NCBI GenBank assembly: GCA_049942965.1
Contig: CP188088.1
Span: 180,001-212,000, forward strand
DNA: 32,000 bases
Direction: 5' to 3'
Source of the DNA: Candidatus Saccharimonadota bacterium
GTDB taxonomy: Bacteria > Pseudomonadota > Gammaproteobacteria > Enterobacterales > Enterobacteriaceae
A program made the translations under genes and the position numbers. The notes under the pieces are model-generated. The model searched no databases and was not told the DNA's origin. It saw only the letters and a program-made list of their open reading frames with translations. This document shows positions 10,458 to 32,000 of the stretch, one piece after another; the stretch's first letter is position 1, and the number at the start of each line of letters is the position of its first letter.

Positions 10458-11488
10458 TTAAAAATTAAAGTTTATTTCTTTTTTGTTTAAAGTAAAAATT
10501 AATATTGATTTTATCGTATGTAATTTATTTATAGACTGTTCAAGAATAATTTTTTTGTTTTTTTGAAAAACTTCATCAGTAATTTCAATTCCATGTTTTA
10601 ATCCAAAATTTTTTATAATTTTTTTTCCTAACGTTGTTTTCAAGTCGTGTAAGGCAGGTAGACAATGAAGAATTTTTATTTGTGGATTGTTTGTTAATTC
10701 TAACATAGAATTATTTATTTGATATTTTTTTAATAGTGATATTTTTTCTTCCCATATTTCTAATTTTTCATTCATAGAAACCCAAACATCTGTATAGATA
10801 AAATCTACTTGATTAATTCCTTTTTCTATATTTTCAGTACATATTATGTTTTTGTTATCAAAATTATTATTTTTTTTAATTTTATGTAAAAAAGAAGGTT
10901 CAGGCCAGTATTTTTTTGGAGCTATAATTCTTAAATTAAATCCAATTAAATTTGAAGCTTCAATTAAAGAATTACTGATGTTGTTTTTTGCATCTCCAAC
11001 ATATGCGCAAGTTATTTCTTCTATTTTTTTGTTTTTAGGTAAATTTTCTTGAATTGTAAGTAAATCTGCTAATAATTGAGTAGGATGGAACTTATTTGTA
11101 AGTGCATTTAATACTGGTATTTTTGAAAGTTTTGAAAATGTTTCTATTGATTCATGTCTATTTCCTCGAAAAACAATTAGATCATATAAACTACTTAATA
11201 TTTCTGTAGTATCTTCTATTGATTCTTTATAGTTTAAATGAGTATCTTTTGGACCTAAATATGTGATATTTGCTCCTTGTTCAAATGATGCAACTTCAAA
11301 AGAACACCTCGTTCTAGTAGATTCTTTTTCAAAAATTAAAACAATTTTTTTATTTTTAAGTATTTTTTTTTTATTTATTTTTTTTTTTTTTTTTTTTTTA
11401 AAAAAGAAGCAAGATCAATTATTTTTTTTATTTCAGAAACAGAATAATCAGATAATTTTAAAAAATTTTTTTTGTATAAAGTATTCAA
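10458..11488 (-). pseudogene. argI: Ornithine carbamoyltransferase, full length but frameshifted once inside a 22-nt poly(A) tract (possibly rescued by slippage)
   Basis: I translated the minus strand by hand. The TTG start at 11488 (GGAG 8 nt upstream) gives [37 protein letters not shown], then TAA. The adjacent frame is open from the tract to the stop at 10458. It encodes [18 protein letters not shown]...[14 protein letters not shown]...[10 protein letters not shown]...[18 protein letters not shown]...[11 protein letters not shown], colinear with E. coli ArgI. The ORF track shows only the last 105 aa because that frame has no ATG further upstream. Confidence 0.85.
11378..11399 (-). repeat. 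Homopolymer: A22 on the argI coding strand (T22 on + strand); site of the argI frameshift
   Basis: Direct count of the T run from 11378 to 11399, confirmed by the antisense ORF-track peptide ...[13 protein letters not shown] (7 Phe codons plus the TTA). A length of 23 or 20 would keep argI in frame. Confidence 0.95.
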
Positions 11489-11640
11489 AAAAATTTCTCC
11501 TTTTTTTTGATTTATTTTTTTTTTGTTTTATTTAAATTTTCTTTTTTAAAAGATACTTTTTTATTATACTTATAAATAATGTATGAAATTTAATTCAATG
11601 ATTAAAAATCAATTAATTATACGATAAAAATGAGAAATTT

Positions 11641-16003: not shown

Positions 16004-16978
16004 ATGAAAAATTTACATAATTTAGTTGAAAGAAAAATACTTAAAAAAAAAATTATGGCCAAAAAAGAAGAAAGAATAGTAGTTTCATTTTATAAATATT
16101 TTCATGTATCCGATATTTTTAATTTTCGTAATAATTTATATAAATTACTATTGTTCTTTAATGTTTTAGGAAGAGTGTATGTATCTAAAGAAGGAATTAA
16201 TTCTCAAATTAGTGTACCGAAAACACAATATTTAAATTTTAAAAAACAAATTCAGAATTTTAATGTTTCTTTGAAAAAAATACATTTTAATACAAGTCAA
16301 ATAAATTATTTAGTTGAACCATTTTGGCTATTAGTTGTAAAAATAAAAACAAAAATTGTCTCTGATGGAATTTCAAATAAAAATTTCAATTTTTTAAAAA
16401 ATAAAGGTTTTTATATAAATGCAGAAGAATTCAATTCAATGTATGTTTCTAATAAAAAAAAAAATGATTCAATTTTTCTTGATATGAGAAATTCTTATGA
16501 ACATGCGATTGGTCGATTTGAAAATTCTATAAATATTTCAAAAAGAACTTTTAAAGATCAAATGAAAAATATTGTTAGTTTTTTAAATCCTTATAAAGAT
16601 AAGAAAATAATAATGTATTGTACAGGTGGAATTAGATGTGAAAAAGCTACTGCATGGATAAAATATCATGGATTTAAACATGTTTATCAATTAAAAAATG
16701 GAATTATTGGGTATTATAATGAAACAAAGAAAAAAAAATTACCAATGTATTTTAAGGGAAAAAATTTTGTTTTTGATGCTAGAATGGGAGAAAAAATTAC
16801 AGATGATTTATTTACAAATTGTAAAATTTGTAAATCACCATCAAATAATTATATTAATTGTAGTTATGAGAGTTGTCATGTTCTTTTTATTCAATGTTTA
16901 CAGTGTTTTAATAAAATGAAAGGTTTTTGTTCTGAAATTTGTTTTTCTAAATTAAAAAATAATAAAAATTTGAAATAA
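16004..16978 (+). CDS. trhO: Rhodanese-domain tRNA uridine(34) hydroxylase TrhO (YceA / UPF0176 family)
   Basis: The ORF contains ISFYKYF-like VVSFYKYF, GRVYVSKEGINSQISVP, the active-site loop MYCTGGIRCEKA, and a C-terminal Cys-rich segment. The track ORF begins at TTG 15983. ATG 16004 (MKNLHNL...) aligns with the E. coli YceA N-terminus (MPVLHNR...) and has AAGGAAA upstream. Confidence 0.85.
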   Translation: MKNLHNLVERKILKKKIMAKKEERIVVSFYKYFHVSDIFNFRNNLYKLLLFFNVLGRVYVSKEGINSQISVPKTQYLNFKKQIQNFNVSLKKIHFNTSQINYLVEPFWLLVVKIKTKIVSDGISNKNFNFLKNKGFYINAEEFNSMYVSNKKKNDSIFLDMRNSYEHAIGRFENSINISKRTFKDQMKNIVSFLNPYKDKKIIMYCTGGIRCEKATAWIKYHGFKHVYQLKNGIIGYYNETKKKKLPMYFKGKNFVFDARMGEKITDDLFTNCKICKSPSNNYINCSYESCHVLFIQCLQCFNKMKGFCSEICFSKLKNNKNLK

Positions 16979-17942
16979 AATTTTTTAAAAAAATATTAAA
17001 TTTAATTTTTAGTTTTTTTAATTAGAATTTTTTTATAATGAAAATTACTTTAAAAAAATTGGGTTTTTAATCTTCTAATTTTTTAAAAAAGTTATATAAA
17101 TTTTAATTTTTTTTCAGTACAAATAAATTTTTATTTAAGTTATTGTTTTTATTTTTAGATTTTTTATTTTTAATTTTTATAAAAAATTTAAAAAAATATA
17201 TTTTTTAAAATATTTTTCACATTTAGTTTTAATTATTTTTTTGATTTTCATAACTGATATTTTTATTTACAAAAATTTAAGAAAATTAATAATAAGCTTT
17301 TTAAAATTAATTTATATGAATCATTTTTTTTTTAATTTTAATCTTTAATTAAAATTATTTAATTTTTAATTTTTATAAAAATTATCAAAATTATTTAGTT
17401 TGTTTTATTTTTTTTTTTTTGTTTATGATGAAATTTTCATTTTTTAATTAAAATTTTTATTTTTATTTAAAAAATAGTTAAATATTTTTTTTTAAATAAT
17501 TAATTTATTTTTTTATTTTTGTTGTTTTTTTTTGTTTTTTTTTTGTCTTTATTAAAAAAAAATATTTTGTTAGTTATTTATTACATTAAAACAAATTTTA
17601 TTCCTAAAATTTAAATTATCTTATTTTTTTTTGATATTTTAATATTTAAAAAATTTTATTTTTTTTAAAATAGTCATATTTATTTACATATGAATAATTA
17701 ATTTAATTAACTATATTAGTTAGTATAATTAATTGGAAAAAATTAGTCTATTGTTTAATTTTTAAAATTTATTTTATTTTAAATAATTTTAGTTTTTTAT
17801 TTATATTAAAAACATTTATTTAATTCTATTTTTTTAGACATTTATATATATAAAATATATTTTTAATGTTTTTGTGAAGTTTTGTAGGATTAATTTTATT
17901 AATAATGTATATATATTATATAATGTTTATATGGGAAAATTT

Positions 17943-22776: not shown

Positions 22777-22895
22777 TAATTTTTTTCTCTTTTTTAAAAT
22801 AAAAGTATAAAAAATTTTTTTGAATTTTATTAAAAATTAAATATAAATAAATTTATTTTTTAATGAAAAAAAATCATTTTTCTAAAAAAAGTATT

Positions 22896-23677
22896 TTATA
22901 TATTAATTGTTGGAAATAATTCATAAAAATTTTTTTTAGTGATATTCACTAGATTTTCAAAATCAATTTTTTTTATTTTAGCTACTTGTTTTGCTATATA
23001 AGGTAAATATGATGGTTGATTTTCCTTGCCTCTATTTGGAACTGGAGATAAATATGGTGAATCAGTTTCAATTAAAATTGACTCAAAAGGTATATATCTT
23101 AAAACTTTTTTTAGTTCATCAGTTTTGTTGAAGGTAATTATCCCTGAAAATGATATATAAAATCCTAAGTCTAGTAATTTTTTAGCATATATTATATTTT
23201 TTTCGGAAAAAGAATGAAGTATTCCTCGACAATCATTTGCTTTTTCTTCTTTCAGTATTTTAATGGTATCTTGAATGGATGATCTTGAATGTACGATTAT
23301 TGGTTTTTTAATTTTTTTAGCTATTTGAATATGTTTTCTAAACGATTCTTGTTGATATTTTATATTTTCTTTACTATGGAAATAATCTAATCCAGTTTCT
23401 CCTATTGCAATTACTTTTTTTATATTTGAAAAATTTTCTAAACTTAAAAAATTATTTTTATTTTTTTTAACATATAATGGATGAATTCCACAAGAATAAA
23501 AAACATTTTTTTTTTTATTGAATTTGATATTTTTTTAAAATTTTTAATAGAAGTAGATATAGTTAGGAATAAACGAACTTTGTTTAAAACCGCATTTTTT
23601 ATTATTTCATCAAGATTCATTCTTGTTTTTTTTAAATTTATTTTGTCTAAATGACAATGACTGTCTATCAAATACAT
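22896..23677 (-). pseudogene. ycfH: TatD-family metal-dependent hydrolase YcfH, full length but frameshifted once inside an A11 tract
   Basis: The N-terminal frame reads MYLIDSHCHLDKINLKK...NSIKKK and then runs out of frame. I translated the adjacent frame by hand from the tract to TAA at 22898-22896 and found no stop. It encodes NVFYSCGIHPL...IAIGETGLDYF...KPIIVHSRSS...GILHSFSE...GFYISFSGIITF...ILIETDSPYLSPVPNRGKENQPS..., colinear with E. coli YcfH. With one extra A the total is about 260 aa. Confidence 0.85.
23506..23516 (-). repeat. Homopolymer: A11 on the ycfH coding strand; site of the ycfH frameshift
   Basis: Direct count of the T run 23506-23516 on the + strand. A length of 12 or 9 would keep ycfH in frame. 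Confidence 0.9.
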
Positions 23678-23705
23678 AAAATTTACTCTTTAGATTTTTA
23701 TTTAT

Positions 23706-25574: not shown

Positions 25575-25820
25575 TTAATTATTATTAATAATAATTTTAT
25601 TTTTAATATATTTAATTGTATTTTCTATTGTGTTTATGTATTTCATATCTTCGTCTGGAATATCAATTTTAAATTTTTCTTCTAGATTCATAACAAGTTC
25701 TATCATATCTAGAGAATCTGCTTCTAAATCTTTAACATAATCTGATTTTTTAAAAATTTTTTCTATTTTTTTATCTAATTGAATAGAAACAATTTGTTTT
25801 ATTTCTTTTTCAATGTCCAT
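25575..25820 (-). CDS. acpP: Acyl carrier protein
   Basis: MDIEKEIKQIVSIQL...DLEADSLDMIELVMNLEEKFKIDIPDED aligns with E. coli ACP, including the phosphopantetheine-attachment DSL motif. The aligned start is ATG 25820, with AGGAG 8 nt upstream. The track ORF's upstream extension to 25892 overlaps the fabG 3' end and is probably not translated. Confidence 0.92.
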   Translation of the reverse strand: MDIEKEIKQIVSIQLDKKIEKIFKKSDYVKDLEADSLDMIELVMNLEEKFKIDIPDEDMKYINTIENTIKYIKNKIIINNN

Positions 25821-25869
25821 TATTTTGTCTCCTAAAGGAATACTTTTAAATAGATCTTTTTTTAAGATA

Positions 25870-26604
25870 TTAAGTAGTTTGCATACCTCCATTTACATGA
25901 ATCACTTGTCCAGTAATGTATGAAGATTTTTTTGAAGATAAAAATGATACAACATTAGCAATATCAGACGCTGTTCCAAAACGTTTCATTGGTATACTTA
26001 ATAAGTATTTGTCTATTTGTTTTTTACTTAATTTTTTTGTCATATTAGACATGATAAATCCAGGAGAGATAATATTTACAGTAATTTTACGAGAGGCAAC
26101 TTCTATTGCAAGTGATTTATGAAAACCTATTAGTGCAGATTTTGAACTTGAATAGCTAATTTGACCACTATTTCCTATAGATCCTATAATAGATCCTATT
26201 GTAATTATTCTACCTTTTCTTTTTTTTATCATGTTCTTTATTACTGATTGTGATAAATGAAATATTGAGGTTAAATTTATTTTTAACGTTTCTTCCCATT
26301 CGAAGATAGAGATTTTTGGTAGTAAGTTATTGTAATTAATTCCTATGTTATTTACTAAAATATTAATATCTCCAAAATTCATATTAATAAAATTTATTTT
26401 TTTTTTAATATCATCAGGATCTTTAACGTTAATTATTATTCCTTCTCCATTTTTATCTAGTATCTTTTTTATTTTTTTTACTCCGTTTTTAGTTCTACTA
26501 GAACCAAAAACAAATATTTTTTGTTTTGATAGTTCTTGTGCTATTTTTTGTCCTATTTCTCCTGTTGCTCCAGTAACTAAAGCTATTTCTTTACCCTGAT
26601 ACAT
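25870..26604 (-). CDS. fabG: 3-oxoacyl-[ACP] reductase FabG
   Basis: 244-aa ORF, the same length I recall for E. coli FabG. SDR motifs are present: VTGATGEIG, NNIGI and YSSSKSALIGFHKSLA (the YxxxK catalytic motif). The C-terminus is GQVIHVNGGM. Confidence 0.93.
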   Translation of the reverse strand: MYQGKEIALVTGATGEIGQKIAQELSKQKIFVFGSSRTKNGVKKIKKILDKNGEGIIINVKDPDDIKKKINFINMNFGDINILVNNIGINYNNLLPKISIFEWEETLKINLTSIFHLSQSVIKNMIKKRKGRIITIGSIIGSIGNSGQISYSSSKSALIGFHKSLAIEVASRKITVNIISPGFIMSNMTKKLSKKQIDKYLLSIPMKRFGTASDIANVVSFLSSKKSSYITGQVIHVNGGMQTT

Positions 26605-26737
26605 CTTTTTTTTTCCTAATTATTTTTTTTAAAAAAAAAATTTTTTTTATTATTTAAAGAAATAGAAATAGAATCTTTTATGTTTTTATTTAAATTTGTT
26701 AATACTTTACTAGTTCCAACTTCTAATAATAGAAAAG

Positions 26738-26750
26738 TTTTTTTTTTTTT
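26738..26750 (-). repeat. Homopolymer: A13 on the fabD coding strand; second fabD frameshift site
   Basis: Direct count of the T run 26738-26750. A length of 14 or 11 would join frame (b) to frame (c). Confidence 0.9.
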
Positions 26751-27302
26751 AAAATAAAATTTATACTTTTTTTCCAGTTTATTGGTTCTACTAATTGTCT
26801 TATTAAAGCTGTCTTTATTTTTTTATTAGATTTTTCATACTTTACATCAACATTGTTAATAATTGGAAAATCAGGCTTTTTAAAAAAAACGTTTTTTAAA
26901 AATTTAGAAAATTTTTTAGATGCGTTTTTCATTAAAATACAATGTGAAGGAACATTTATTGATAAATGAAAAACAGCTTTCGCACCTAATAATTTACATA
27001 TTTTTTCTATTTTATGTAGTTTTTTTTTATTTCCAGATACTACAATTTCAGTGTCAGAATTTATACTAGAAATAGCAGCAAATTCATTTTTAAAAAAATT
27101 TTTGCAAATTTTTTTTATTATTTTTTTTTTCATTCCAATTATTGCCATCATAGATCCTGGATTATTTTTTGCTGATTCTTGCATAAGTTTATTTCTTTGT
27201 ATAACAGTTTTTAGCCCATCTTTTAATGAGATTGAATTAGAACAAACTAATGCTGAATATTCTCCTAGACTATGACCTGCGGCTATATTAGGAATTTTTT
27301 CG

Positions 27303-27312
27303 TTTTTTTTTT
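27303..27312 (-). repeat. Homopolymer: A10 on the fabD coding strand; first fabD frameshift site
   Basis: Direct count of the T run 27303-27312. A length of 11 or 8 would join frame (a) to frame (b). The two track ORFs 27283..27540 and 26723..27316 overlap here. Confidence 0.9.
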
Positions 27313-27722
27313 CCATGTATAATAAAGAGAAACTGAAGTTGTTAATATTAAAGCTGGAATATATTCATTGTTTTTGAAGTTATTATTATAGTTTCCGTTT
27401 ATATATTTCCACAAATTATGGTTAATGTAATCAGAAGCTTCATCAAAAGTATTTTTTATTATAGGGAAAGTTTTGGATAATTTAAATAATATATCTGTTC
27501 TTTGAGACCCCTGACCTGGAAATATCATTGCAAATTTCATTTTTTACCTGTTATTTAAAAACATATTTTTTATGTAATATTTTTTTAAATTTTGTAAACA
27601 AAAAATTTTTTTGAAATTATTAATTTTTCAAAAAATAAGAATTTCTACGAATTATTAATTTGTTAAATAGTATTTAAAAATTAAAAAAAAAAAAAAAATT
27701 CTTATTTTAATAACTTATGTTT

Positions 27723-29209: not shown

Positions 29210-30466
29210 ATGAAAAGAATGTTAATTAATGCTGTTAATTCTAAAGAATGGAGAGTAGCTTTGGTAGATGGTAAAAGATTGTATGATTTAGATATAGATA
29301 ATCCTAACAATGACTTAAATAGAAAAAAATTAAATGTTTATAAAGGAGTTATTGATAGAATTGAACCTAGTTTAGATGCTGTATTTATAAATTACGGTTT
29401 TAAAAAACGTGGATTTTTACCAATAAAAGAAATTTCAAAAAATTATTTTTATGAAAAAAATATTACTAGAAATCATATTCTTTTTTTAAAAAAGGGTATG
29501 GAGGTAATTGTTCAAATAGAACAAGAAGAAAGAATGAATAAAGGAGCTTTATTAACAACATATATTAGTTTAGTAGGAAGCTTTTTAATTTTAATGCCAA
29601 ATAATCCCAATGTTTTAGGCATTTCTAAAAAAATAGAAGGTATTTATCGAAATGAATTAAAAAAGGTTTTTAAACGATTGATTATACCTAAAAATATGGG
29701 ATTAATAATTAGAACTGCTAGTTTAGGAAAATCTTTAAAAATTTTACAAAGTGATCTAGATTCTAGATTAAAACAATGGAAATTAATTATTGAAACAGCT
29801 AATAATTATTCATCTCCAATTTTGTTATGTCGAGAAAGTAATATTATTCATAGGTCTTTTAGAGATAATTTACATCAAGATATAGAAGAAATCATAATTG
29901 ATAATTACAAATTATTAAATGATATATATAGTTACATGAATATTTTAGGTCGTATAGATTTTTTACATAAAATTAAAATTTTTAATAAAAAAATCCCAAT
30001 GTTTAGCTATTTTCAAATTGAGTTACAAATTACTTCTATTTTTCAAAGAAAGATAAAATTATTCTCAGGAGGAGAAATTGTCATTGATTCCACAGAAGCT
30101 TTAACTGTAATTGATGTTAATTCGTCTCAATCTAAAAATGGAAAAAGAATGAAAGAAACAGCTTTAAATACTAATTTAGAAGCAGTTGAAGAAATATCCA
30201 AACAAATTAGATTGCGAGATTTAGGAGGTTTAATTGTGATAGATTTTATTGATATGAAATTAATTGATCATAAACGAATCATTGAAAAAAAAATTAAAGA
30301 AGAGATAAAAAAAGATAGAGCTCGTATTCAAATTGGTTTAATTTCTAGATTTGGATTATTAGAAATGTCTAGACAACGAGTAAAATACTCCATAAAAAAT
30401 CTTAATAATTATATTTGTTCTAAATGTAGTGGAACAGGTGTATTGAAGAAAAATTTTATTTTTTAA
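29210..30466 (+). CDS. rne: Ribonuclease E, N-terminal catalytic region only (418 aa; ends just after the Zn-link)
   Basis: MKRMLINAVNSKEWRVALVDGKRLYDLDI matches the E. coli Rne N-terminus. The S1 domain, 5' sensor and DNase I-like domain are present, with acidic catalytic residues conserved (TVIDVNSS, LIVIDFIDM). The Zn-link CSKCSGTG is followed by only 10 more codons. It is divergent from rluC, as in E. coli. Confidence 0.9.
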   Translation: MKRMLINAVNSKEWRVALVDGKRLYDLDIDNPNNDLNRKKLNVYKGVIDRIEPSLDAVFINYGFKKRGFLPIKEISKNYFYEKNITRNHILFLKKGMEVIVQIEQEERMNKGALLTTYISLVGSFLILMPNNPNVLGISKKIEGIYRNELKKVFKRLIIPKNMGLIIRTASLGKSLKILQSDLDSRLKQWKLIIETANNYSSPILLCRESNIIHRSFRDNLHQDIEEIIIDNYKLLNDIYSYMNILGRIDFLHKIKIFNKKIPMFSYFQIELQITSIFQRKIKLFSGGEIVIDSTEALTVIDVNSSQSKNGKRMKETALNTNLEAVEEISKQIRLRDLGGLIVIDFIDMKLIDHKRIIEKKIKEEIKKDRARIQIGLISRFGLLEMSRQRVKYSIKNLNNYICSKCSGTGVLKKNFIF

Positions 30467-30712: not shown

Positions 30713-32000
30713 TTAAAATTTAGAATTAAATATTTTTATTATTTCACTTATTTCATTAAGTGATGGTTCAAGAGATGACGTTTTATAATTTGATAAATGG
30801 AGATTGTCTAGATTCTTTGGTTTTTTATTTAAATTTTGAAAAAAAATATTATTATTTAATTCATACATATTTTTTTCTAATAGAATATTTTCTTCCTTAA
30901 CTTTTAATCGTTGATTTAATTTTAGTTGTTCTATTTTTTCTTGTATATGATTTTTATAATTTTCATAAGATTCTTCCATTGTTTCCTTATTGTTTATTAG
31001 CTTATAATTTTTTGAATCAATCATTTTCTGAAAATTTAAATAATCATCACGATCTGTATTGTTTGTTGGAAAATAAGCAATGTTTGTTTTTTCAGTTACG
31101 TTAGATTCAATGGAAAATTTATCAATTGCTGTAGCAGTTGATTGAATTAAATATTTATCGTTTTTTTTAAGAGATTTATTTAAATACTCGATTATTATTC
31201 CATCAAATTTTAGTAATGACAATGATAAAGCATTTTTTTTTTTTTCGGTCTTAAAATCAATAATTTCTTTATTATTAAAGAAATTTTTTATTTTCCATTT
31301 GTTTTTTCCTAAAAATTGAATTTCATATGTTTTTGGATAAAAAACATTGTAAGTATTCCATTTAGAATTTAATTTTTCCTTACCTTTATTATTTTTGTTA
31401 GGTATAATTTTTGGGTTGGTTTCTGAAAATATTTTTACTCCTGGATTACAATTAATATCATAACCATATCTATTTATAAAATTAAAATTATTGCTAAAAT
31501 TGTAAATTAGTTGTCCAATTTTATTTTTTGTTGATTCTAATTGTATTGTTCTAAATTTTAAAATAGCACCTAGAGTTCCTGTCGTGATAACTGGATCTAA
31601 AATTTTCATTGTTTTTTTTTTTTTTAATTGATATCCAACAGACATTTTATTAGAAAAATATGAACCATGAGCTGGAAAAATATCGTTTTTTTTAAAATTT
31701 TCTAATAAAATAATTTTTTTATTTAAAAATAAAAAAAAATTGTTGTTTTTTTCTAAAGATTTAATTCCAGCAATTTCATTTAATTGGTTAGATAAAATTT
31801 GTCTATCTACTATTAAATTTTCAATTTCATTTTTTTTATTAAAAATAATTGAATTAGGTTCATTTTTAATGTCATTAATTTTTTTATTAATATTTTTAAT
31901 TAATAGTAGATTATTGTTAATTTTTTTTATTTCTGATTTGATTTCTACGTTTAACAAAAATTCTAATTCTGACATGGATTTGTTAAATTTGTTTATCTGT
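30713..32000 (-). CDS. flgK: Flagellar hook-associated protein 1 FlgK (N-terminus lies beyond the window end)
   Basis: The central region LDPVITTGTLGAILKFRTIQLESTKNKIGQLIYNFSNNFNFINRYGYD aligns with E. coli FlgK LLNTGSLGGILTFRSQDLDQTRNTLGQLALAFAEAFNTQHKAGFD. The frame stays open upstream of the track's ATG at 31975 (..QINKFNKSMSELE), so the gene continues past nt 32000. It is adjacent to rne, as in enterobacteria. Confidence 0.8.
   Translation of the reverse strand, partial: QINKFNKSMSELEFLLNVEIKSEIKKINNNLLLIKNINKKINDIKNEPNSIIFNKKNEIENLIVDRQILSNQLNEIAGIKSLEKNNNFFLFLNKKIILLENFKKNDIFPAHGSYFSNKMSVGYQLKKKKTMKILDPVITTGTLGAILKFRTIQLESTKNKIGQLIYNFSNNFNFINRYGYDINCNPGVKIFSETNPKIIPNKNNKGKEKLNSKWNTYNVFYPKTYEIQFLGKNKWKIKNFFNNKEIIDFKTEKKKNALSLSLLKFDGIIIEYLNKSLKKNDKYLIQSTATAIDKFSIESNVTEKTNIAYFPTNNTDRDDYLNFQKMIDSKNYKLINNKETMEESYENYKNHIQEKIEQLKLNQRLKVKEENILLEKNMYELNNNIFFQNLNKKPKNLDNLHLSNYKTSSLEPSLNEISEIIKIFNSKF

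Follow-up and report, generated by a model that had tools for sequence, protein, structure and literature searches.

The window analysed here is a stretch of 32,000 nucleotides (positions 180,001 to 212,000 of CP188088.1) from the genome of Buchnera aphidicola, whose host here is the gall aphid Tetraneura akinire (genome CP188088, about 22% GC; announcement PMC12243488), and its minus strand carries fabD, the gene for the acyl carrier protein (ACP) S-malonyltransferase, whose reading frame is interrupted twice, each time within a run of A. The open reading frames (ORFs) around fabD match the T. akinire Buchnera proteins XRY30874-76 residue for residue, and along the minus strand the genes follow one another as rluC, rpmF, fabD, fabG, acpP, tmk, holB, ycfH, ptsG, which fits the arrangement rpmF-(plsX-fabH)-fabD-fabG-acpP, with plsX, fabH and fabF absent here. 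The whole gene extends over 26616..27540 and measures 925 nt, 2 nt below the length of 308 intact codons and a stop; as read from the sequence, a Shine-Dalgarno-like AGG (27547..27549, minus strand) stands 7 nt upstream of its ATG. Directly downstream, within 25575..26604 of the same strand, lie fabG (25870-26604) and acpP (25575-25820), pathway partners that consume malonyl-ACP. Both are intact and under purifying selection, with ratios of non-synonymous to synonymous substitution rates (dN/dS) against the Buchnera of T. sorini of 0.13 for fabG and 0.16 for acpP, and it follows from their integrity and constraint that malonyl-ACP is still needed.

In the DNA, fabD is not present as one uninterrupted ORF and consists instead of an ORF of 85 aa, an ORF of 197 aa and a segment that has no start, all on the minus strand. 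Segment a (27313..27540, frame a) holds codons 1-76, from Met1 to Trp76, and includes the motif GQGSQ with the conserved Gln10; if it is read on without a bypass, the frame that opens at the ATG at 27540 closes at a TAG at 27283-27285, giving the 85-aa ORF. It is followed by site 1, an A10 tract at 27303..27312 (T10 on the plus strand), which is one A below the A11 of the colinear reading TGG AAA AAA AAA AAC, that is, W K K K N. Segment b (26751..27302, frame b) encodes residues of about 80-262, among them the nucleophile Ser91 (codon 27269-27271, in GHSLGE), Arg116, His200 (26942-26944, in VPSHC) and Gln249; taken mechanically, the ORF of this frame runs from 27316 to 26723 and has 197 aa, its start ATG overlapping the Trp76 codon. 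Site 2, an A13 tract at 26738..26750, is one A below the in-frame A14 found in T. sorini, and where it is not bypassed frame b ends in LFYY* with a TAG at 26723-26725. The last 42 codons or so, segment c (26616..26737, frame c, TFLLLEVGTSKVLTNLNK...), end with a TAG at 26616-26618 and are missing from the ORF list because they have no start codon of their own. An earlier reading made from the letters of the window (hereafter the sequence-only reading) had described three frames that join exactly at the two tracts, the third of them absent from the ORF track, and the reading of frames and tracts bears this out. Both PGAP and Prokka call two separate fabD ORFs.

When 25 combinations of tract lengths were tried, a long product was obtained only with +1 or –2 at each site, and the +1/+1 combination yields the 308 aa that the sequence-only reading had set against the 309 aa of E. 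coli FabD, with which (1mla, 309 aa) the repaired product is colinear over residues 2-299. It aligns end to end with the solved FabDs, and the motifs GQGSQ, GHSLGE, VPSHC and LEVGTSKVLTNLNK are all retained. Against the curated equivalog profile TIGR00128 for fabD, the repaired product scores 274.1 bits with a cutoff of 260.9 (residues 1-290 on positions 1-288 of the 290 of the profile). The residues Q10, S91, R116, H200 and Q249 are invariant in an alignment of 28 sequences and are all kept, as is every other invariant column; we take them to be the equivalents of the catalytic and binding residues Gln11, Ser92 (GHSxG), Arg117, His201 and Gln250 in E. coli FabD numbering. The AlphaFold2 model of the repaired protein (mean predicted local distance difference test score, pLDDT, 90.6; predicted template modelling score, pTM, 0.91) has the two-subdomain fold over its full length, C-terminal segment included, and in Foldseek it superposes on 1mla with template modelling (TM) scores of 0.93/0.94 and a root-mean-square deviation of 1.6 Å, and on 6smd with a TM score of 0.95. 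By profile, residues and fold, the repaired protein is thus an intact FabD, with a predicted malonyl-CoA:ACP transacylase activity. All that the sequence-only reading had described proves correct. The +1-repaired genes of the four Buchnera lineages compared below all translate over their full length as well, with no other stops or indels.

The model also places the two junctions in the structure. After repair the residues read W-K-K-K-N-E-K-I-P... at site 1 and ...I-L-K-K-K-K-T-F-L-L-L-E-V-G at site 2, and each Lys run closes the C-terminal end of a helix (61-80 and 256-266, respectively), directly before a loop; judging from these positions, FabD products one Lys longer or shorter, as –2 or +4 slips would make them, should be tolerated. 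Segment c contributes a beta-strand of the core (271-274) as well as the C-terminal helices, and the product left uncorrected at site 2 (residues 1-266 followed by LFYY) would probably be inactive or unstable. Among the peptides predicted for the gene, IPNIAAGHSLGEYSALVCSNSISLK belongs to frame b and TFLLLEVGTSK to frame c, with ...FLI and ...LFYY as the tails of the uncorrected products.

Long homopolymers are typically shortened in Nanopore reads, and it could be supposed that the true lengths are A11 and A14 and that the two frameshifts are products of under-calling in the assembly. The way in which the deposited genome was made speaks for this explanation, as it was assembled from Nanopore data (Guppy 4.2.3, miniasm, Racon) and polished with 75-bp Illumina reads alone (PMC12243488). 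However, Illumina run SRR33632138, which is derived from the same sample, was assembled on its own from k-mers by Logan, and this Illumina-only assembly contains a 37-kb contig identical to the window in 935 of 935 bases, A10 and A13 included, with the same two ORFs. The two tracts recur in a lineage diverged by 1.5%, both in a third-party annotation (TPA) metagenome-assembled genome (GCA_035718965.1) and in the assemblies of five further sequencing runs (four runs SRR71865xx, and SRR14373458). Moreover, the pipeline that gave A13 in T. akinire gave A14 at site 2 in T. sorini, and T. ulmi, which comes from another laboratory, has A10 at site 1, a length given by two independent assemblies. The sequence-only reading had named A11 and A14 as the lengths that would betray an artefact; with A10 and A13 in the Illumina-only assembly, the artefact reading is extremely improbable and is essentially excluded. 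As a side observation, the methods of the genome paper state that the libraries for the Illumina polishing were made using a TruSeq RNA Library Prep Kit (PMC12243488), and if these reads were complementary DNA (cDNA) then both the polishing and the Logan contig would mirror transcripts and not DNA. Against this stands the Logan contig itself, which, with its 37 kb and over the five neighbouring genes for which it was fetched, points to genomic DNA.

The behaviour of comparable runs was followed over an alignment of about 11 kb with T. sorini, which contains 24 coding A/T runs of at least 9 nt. Sixteen have the same length in the two genomes, six are interrupted by substitutions in T. sorini and one is not comparable, so that site 2 of fabD is the only one of the 24 that differs from T. 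sorini as a pure run. A T16 run in the spacer between rpmF and fabD (27683-27698, gene orientation) also varies, being T17 followed by C in the lineage L011 and ATTTTA in T. sorini; in coding runs of similar length, the length is conserved.

The two frameshifts differ in age and in phylogenetic spread. In the window (T. akinire, L010) and in the sister lineages diverged from it by 1.5% (L004-L008 and L011), site 1 is A10 and site 2 is A13, both frameshifted. In T. sorini (L001, 5.8% from the window) site 1 is again a frameshifted A10, and site 2 is A14 and in frame; in T. ulmi (L009, 13.7% from the window) site 1 reads A10-T-A9, frameshifted, and site 2 reads AAA AAT AAA, in frame. In the outgroup, the Buchnera of Eriosoma grossulariae and E. 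harunire, fabD is intact and site 1 is an in-frame AAA AAA AAA ATA or AAT AAA AAT. Homology confines the shift at site 1 to about 25 nt between the codons of Trp76 and Pro84, where A10 is the sole long run, and at site 2 the shift is placed in the tract by T. sorini, which differs by exactly one A. Parsimony makes site 1 a deletion of 1 nt older than the split of the T. akinire, T. sorini and T. ulmi Buchnera, and site 2 a later loss of one A (A14 to A13) that only T. akinire and its closest relatives have. A comparison of tract lengths in sister strains had been proposed by the sequence-only reading, and it shows the frameshift of site 1 in both T. sorini and T. ulmi, and that of site 2 in neither. 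The conservation of site 2 is accordingly shallow, as it comprises three lineages (T. akinire, the L004 type and the L011 type) at most 1.5% apart, the synonymous divergence (dS) between carriers of A13 being about 0.03-0.06.

The T. ulmi gene has already been joined by curators. Residue for residue, the L009 protein is that of the Buchnera (T. ulmi) entries, which are split into 91 + 226 aa in RefSeq and joined into 311 aa in the submitters' curated CAL4043075.1, and this curated 311-aa FabD is what the +1A repair of L009 gives. Outside Tetraneura, the 98-aa ORF WP_367679230.1, from a Buchnera with a genome of 626,868 bp, is a FabD N-terminus that loses its frame immediately past the W-K-K-K found at site 1. 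A separate frameshift in the same place is suggested, with a polarity inferred from the protein alone, and site 1 seems to be prone to break repeatedly. A scan of metagenomes for more lineages of the Tetraneura clade, using a conserved 38-nt fabD pattern, gave no match.

If a gene is kept in use in spite of its frameshifts, the frames that follow them are expected to remain under selection. dN/dS was calculated by the Nei-Gojobori method (NG86) on the +1-repaired coding sequences, with a binomial test against neutrality. For the whole gene it amounts to 0.115 against the L004 lineage, to 0.157 against T. sorini and to 0.20-0.28 against T. ulmi; the first value, obtained within the A13 clade, comes from 10 synonymous and 5 non-synonymous changes. 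For segment b alone, whose reading depends on a bypass of site 1, it is 0.096 against T. sorini, 0.21-0.24 against T. ulmi and 0.13 in another pair, with binomial P values of 2e-9 to 6e-7. Eight intact neighbours (rluC, rpmF, fabG, acpP, tmk, holB, ptsG and hinT) give 0.11-0.31 against T. sorini, and the constraint on fabD is indistinguishable from that of ordinary functional genes. Furthermore, when the observed number and spectrum of substitutions were placed at random, the frame after site 1 stayed free of stops in 0.6-0.9% of the trials (T. ulmi comparisons). A low dN/dS together with a frame kept open after site 1 implies that this frame must be translated, and the comparison of sequences shows that the frame after A10 has been decoded throughout the divergence of the Tetraneura lineages. 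The signs of a pseudogene, that is, a dN/dS near 1 and additional stops or indels, do not appear in fabD as a whole, a comparison that has little power for the time since site 2 arose.

The sequence-only reading had left the choice between slippage rescue and a decay that has only recently begun, and the comparative data divide the answer between the two sites. At site 1, which is old, shared and followed by a frame under selection, slippage rescue is strongly supported on comparative grounds, and recent decay is refuted; at site 2 the changes are too few to tell rescue from early decay. The argument of that reading against random decay, which it saw as hard to square with two hits that both lie in homopolymers, is weak, for mutation bias alone predicts such hits. 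Homopolymers are hot spots of indels and the expected first break sites in endosymbiont genes, and the window contains 30 A/T runs of at least 10 nt, four of them in fabD. Since long runs are common in a genome of 22% GC and are indel hot spots, hits in homopolymers are not by themselves evidence for function, and the support for rescue comes from the comparative data.

Taken together, the analysis favours, with a probability of roughly 0.6, the interpretation that fabD is functional, or was so until very recently, and that it carries two genuine 1-nt deletions in poly(A) runs coding for Lys, which are bypassed by slippage. RNA polymerase would slip on the A/T run and the transcript would realign backwards, so that a fraction of the mRNAs gains one A (A11 at site 1) and the frame is restored; because the tracts exceed the RNA:DNA hybrid of about 9 bp, such a backward realignment can take place without a mismatch. 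Ribosomes sliding or shifting by –1 on A-AAA-AAA would produce the identical protein and may contribute, and the mechanisms of the RNA polymerase and of the ribosome are not mutually exclusive. Site 2, which has the same polarity, would be bypassed like site 1. Full-length FabD would then come from doubly corrected molecules only, with a yield of approximately the product of the two frequencies; that two bypass events are required per molecule had been correctly deduced from the sequence. Slippage is the most likely mechanism, probably with RNA polymerase as its main actor, and site 2 would be rescued rather than merely tolerated or lethal to the gene.

Several observations on related systems are consistent with this interpretation. 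In Buchnera, 151 of 157 insertions introduced by transcription fall in homopolymers, mostly as +1 of the matching base, and they become exponentially more frequent as the runs lengthen, up to 11 nt (PMC5574713). The four poly(A) frameshifts of the window (two in fabD and one each in ycfH and argI, described below) all have one A too few and need +1 nt, or equivalently a –1 step of the ribosome, which agrees with the insertion bias of Buchnera transcription errors, although four cases are too few for significance. According to a review, Tamas 2008 found 12-50% of corrected transcripts for frameshifted poly(A) tracts in Buchnera cell-wall genes and in a Blochmannia histidine gene (PMC5009743), and another account gives about 30% of full-length transcripts and frameshifts kept among species without degradation (Tamas 2008 and Wernegreen 2010, in PMC3017870). 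Curators of Buchnera genomes annotate genes with poly(A) frameshifts as functional (Manzano-Marin et al., bioRxiv 10.1101/2022.08.28.505559). On fabD, frameshifts or transcriptomes, a preprint dealing with the life cycles and symbionts of Tetraneura is silent, and a scan for promoters and terminators around fabD gave as many matches as shuffled sequences and is uninformative in this AT-rich DNA.

Other points weigh against bypass by slippage. For fabD it is proposed by analogy. Reverse transcription-polymerase chain reaction (RT-PCR) can slip on homopolymers, and the older figures of 12-50% rest on RT-PCR. If about 10-30% of the molecules are corrected at each site, the full-length yield is only 1-9%, which could be either sufficient or too little. 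Selection is not in evidence for site 2: in segment c, the changes within the A13 clade are one synonymous and three non-synonymous (dN/dS 0.72, P=0.58), a ratio drawn from four changes only, two of which fall in the poorly conserved extreme C-terminus. Error-controlled sequencing has seen no frame-restoring transcription errors in Buchnera (PMC5574713). Finally, annotators of Blochmannia regarded a gene as likely rescued only if it had a single indel (PMC3017870), and fabD has two.

Some of these points also fit a different history, in which site 1 had long been bypassed and the step from A14 to A13 then cut the output so far that the gene died, leaving a young pseudogene or a truncated product of about 270 aa, with too little time so far for more damage to build up. 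The deletion at site 2 is indeed derived and, at the dS given above, recent; segment c has three non-synonymous changes to one synonymous, and, as this segment is a core strand with the terminal helices, the uncorrected product would probably be unstable. That a doubly corrected yield is the product of two fractions points in the same direction, and gene loss is not foreign to these genomes, as fatty-acid genes have been lost wholly in some Buchnera lineages (Manzano-Marin et al.) and 29 pseudogenes are counted in the genome paper (PMC12243488). Nevertheless, the deletion has outlived the split of at least three lineages without a further indel or stop in fabD, the dN/dS of the whole gene in the A13 clade is low, and fabG and acpP remain intact and constrained. 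Moreover, A13 is longer than A10, and with an exponential dependence on length (PMC5574713) more slippage is expected there than at the site that was tolerated. The death of the gene by a second hit is hence considered unlikely, although among the alternatives it is the one to be taken most seriously. Rather less probable is a bypass that is mainly translational, with ribosomes that slide or shift by –1 and tRNA-Lys that re-pairs one base back, giving the same protein as +1A. A perfect X-XXY-YYZ heptamer (A AAA AAA) lies in the incoming frame at both sites and both need –1; E. coli ribosomes slide on iterated AAA Lys codons (PMC4363877), endosymbionts may keep indels compensated by translational frameshifting (review PMC5009743), and the null result of the error-controlled sequencing, which tells against RNA polymerase, tells in favour of the ribosome. 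However, the 90 nt after the tracts contain no stimulatory structure (minimum free energies of –13.4 and –7.3 kcal/mol, z scores of –0.31 and +0.65 against shuffles), and the upstream sequences tctctttattatacatgg and agtataaattttatttt lack a GGAGG-like Shine-Dalgarno element. Unstimulated –1 shifting is usually inefficient, which counts against the ribosome as the main agent. At such tracts heterogeneity of the cDNA itself has been reported (PMC3017870, PMC5009743). With neither a structure nor a Shine-Dalgarno-like element, the fabD tracts do not appear to be marked as programmed frameshift sites.

It could also be imagined that no recoding takes place at all, and that an N-terminal piece of 85 aa and a C-terminal piece translated from the internal ATG at 27316 are produced independently and assemble into a split, active enzyme. 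The frame b ATG stands directly before A10 in all four lineages, and PGAP and Prokka call both ORFs. However, this ATG is composed of the last base of the preceding codon and the conserved Trp codon (acA TGG or atA TGG), and because the Trp codon makes it, its conservation needs no separate explanation. It also has no Shine-Dalgarno-like sequence, unlike the starts of fabD and of fabG, the latter being preceded by AGGA. In the model the cut would fall between the helix 61-80 and the strand that leads into the nucleophile elbow, and the start-less segment c leaves site 2 unaccounted for. A split enzyme is therefore very improbable, hardly more credible than the assembly artefact.

As for its relation to known systems, fabD is a case of the known poly(A) frameshift phenomenon (Tamas 2008; Wernegreen 2010), and the need for two bypass events is its sole unusual point. 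Site 1 has all the sequence features of rescued genes, i.e., the indel falls within a long stretch of A, the rest of the gene is intact, the shift is conserved and purifying selection acts downstream of it, and at both sites (A10 and A13) the indel lies inside an A/T run at least as long as the hybrid of about 9 bp. The slippage-rescued genes of Buchnera and Blochmannia, as described in PMC5009743 and PMC3017870 (Tamas 2008), belong likewise to AT-rich insect endosymbionts, have a 1-nt indel in a coding A run of at least 10 and are otherwise intact, and their full-length product needs an added A in the mRNA; they differ in that each has a single frameshift with cDNA and protein evidence, whereas fabD has two that are known from the DNA. 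In Blochmannia, a frameshift across species with low dN/dS and no degradation (Wernegreen, Kauppinen and Degnan 2010, as described in PMC3017870) has the pattern of fabD site 1 in three Tetraneura hosts, in another symbiont and another gene; fabD adds a younger frameshift on top of the ancient one. Among the Buchnera genes joined by curators (pheA in Periphyllus/Chaitophorinae and the T. ulmi fabD CAL4043075.1), the latter is the ortholog with the same shift at site 1; it has this shift only, since its site 2 is interrupted and in frame, as described above. Lastly, the –1 frameshift of E. coli dnaX, which is programmed and ribosomal, and the rescue of Citrobacter rodentium tssM by transcriptional frameshifting (PMC4256274) share with fabD an A-rich slippery sequence and a defined alternative product, but dnaX has an upstream Shine-Dalgarno-like element, a downstream hairpin and two useful products, while fabD has neither stimulator and its unshifted products are probably useless.

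Two other genes of the window are frameshifted in poly(A) runs. The TatD/YchF-family hydrolase gene ycfH (22790-23680, minus strand) has a single frameshift in an A11 run (23506-23516); with +1A it encodes 260 aa that score 278.6 against TIGR00010, with a cutoff of 206, and the A11 frameshift is conserved, being present in T. sorini and in L011 as well. The ornithine carbamoyltransferase gene argI (10458-11500, minus strand) is frameshifted in a 22-nt A run (11378-11399), with the length as in the assembly of the window; with +1A it encodes about 340 aa scoring 351 against TIGR00658 (cutoff 280.85), and the ORF lister shows a C-terminal piece of 105 aa only. A second source for the length of this tract was sought, and the only other contig found, from an assembly of a Nanopore run, begins just past A22. 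On the plus strand, rne (29210-30466) has 418 aa that match positions 1-416 of the 1068 of the RNase E profile, that is, the catalytic N-terminal domain up to the CxxCxGxG zinc link; its length is the same in L004 and L011, and no continuation is found in the next 250 nt. The region 16978-17874, between yceA/trhO and asnS, consists of about 900 bp with 14% GC, contains no ORF of any size and many T10-T13 runs, and resembles either a gene that has eroded completely or a spacer of unusual length. A 420-aa ORF on the minus strand (30713-31975) has a weak match to FlgK (41 bits, with a cutoff of 170.75) and contains in-frame A13 (31233-31245) and A14 (31612-31625) runs, both of which are interrupted in the sister lineages by substitutions and not by a change of length.

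The rescue of genes with poly(A) frameshifts has been accepted since 2008 and is part of annotation practice, and it is its size that is disputed, between the 12-50% of RT-PCR and none in error-controlled sequencing. In automated annotation by Prokka and PGAP, fabD appears either as a pseudogene or as two genes, one for a 'hypothetical protein' and the other for an 'acyltransferase domain protein', and such a call would wrongly drop the synthesis of malonyl-ACP from metabolic reconstructions; the same holds for ycfH and for argI, i.e., for arginine synthesis, which is central to the symbiosis. With one frameshift in T. sorini and two in T. akinire, fabD offers a natural calibration, and a comparison of the two could show whether each bypass occurs independently of the other and what minimum of FabD suffices for a Buchnera cell. 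It may be proposed, tentatively and at somewhat less than even odds, that doubly slipped molecules are the sole source of FabD in the T. akinire lineage and that a tiny output is sufficient or even selected. If so, slippage in vivo at A10 and A13 would be far above the figures of the error-controlled transcriptomes, and the two stacked frameshifts, 552 nt apart, would act as a heritable dial by which the output of an essential enzyme is lowered ten- to hundredfold.

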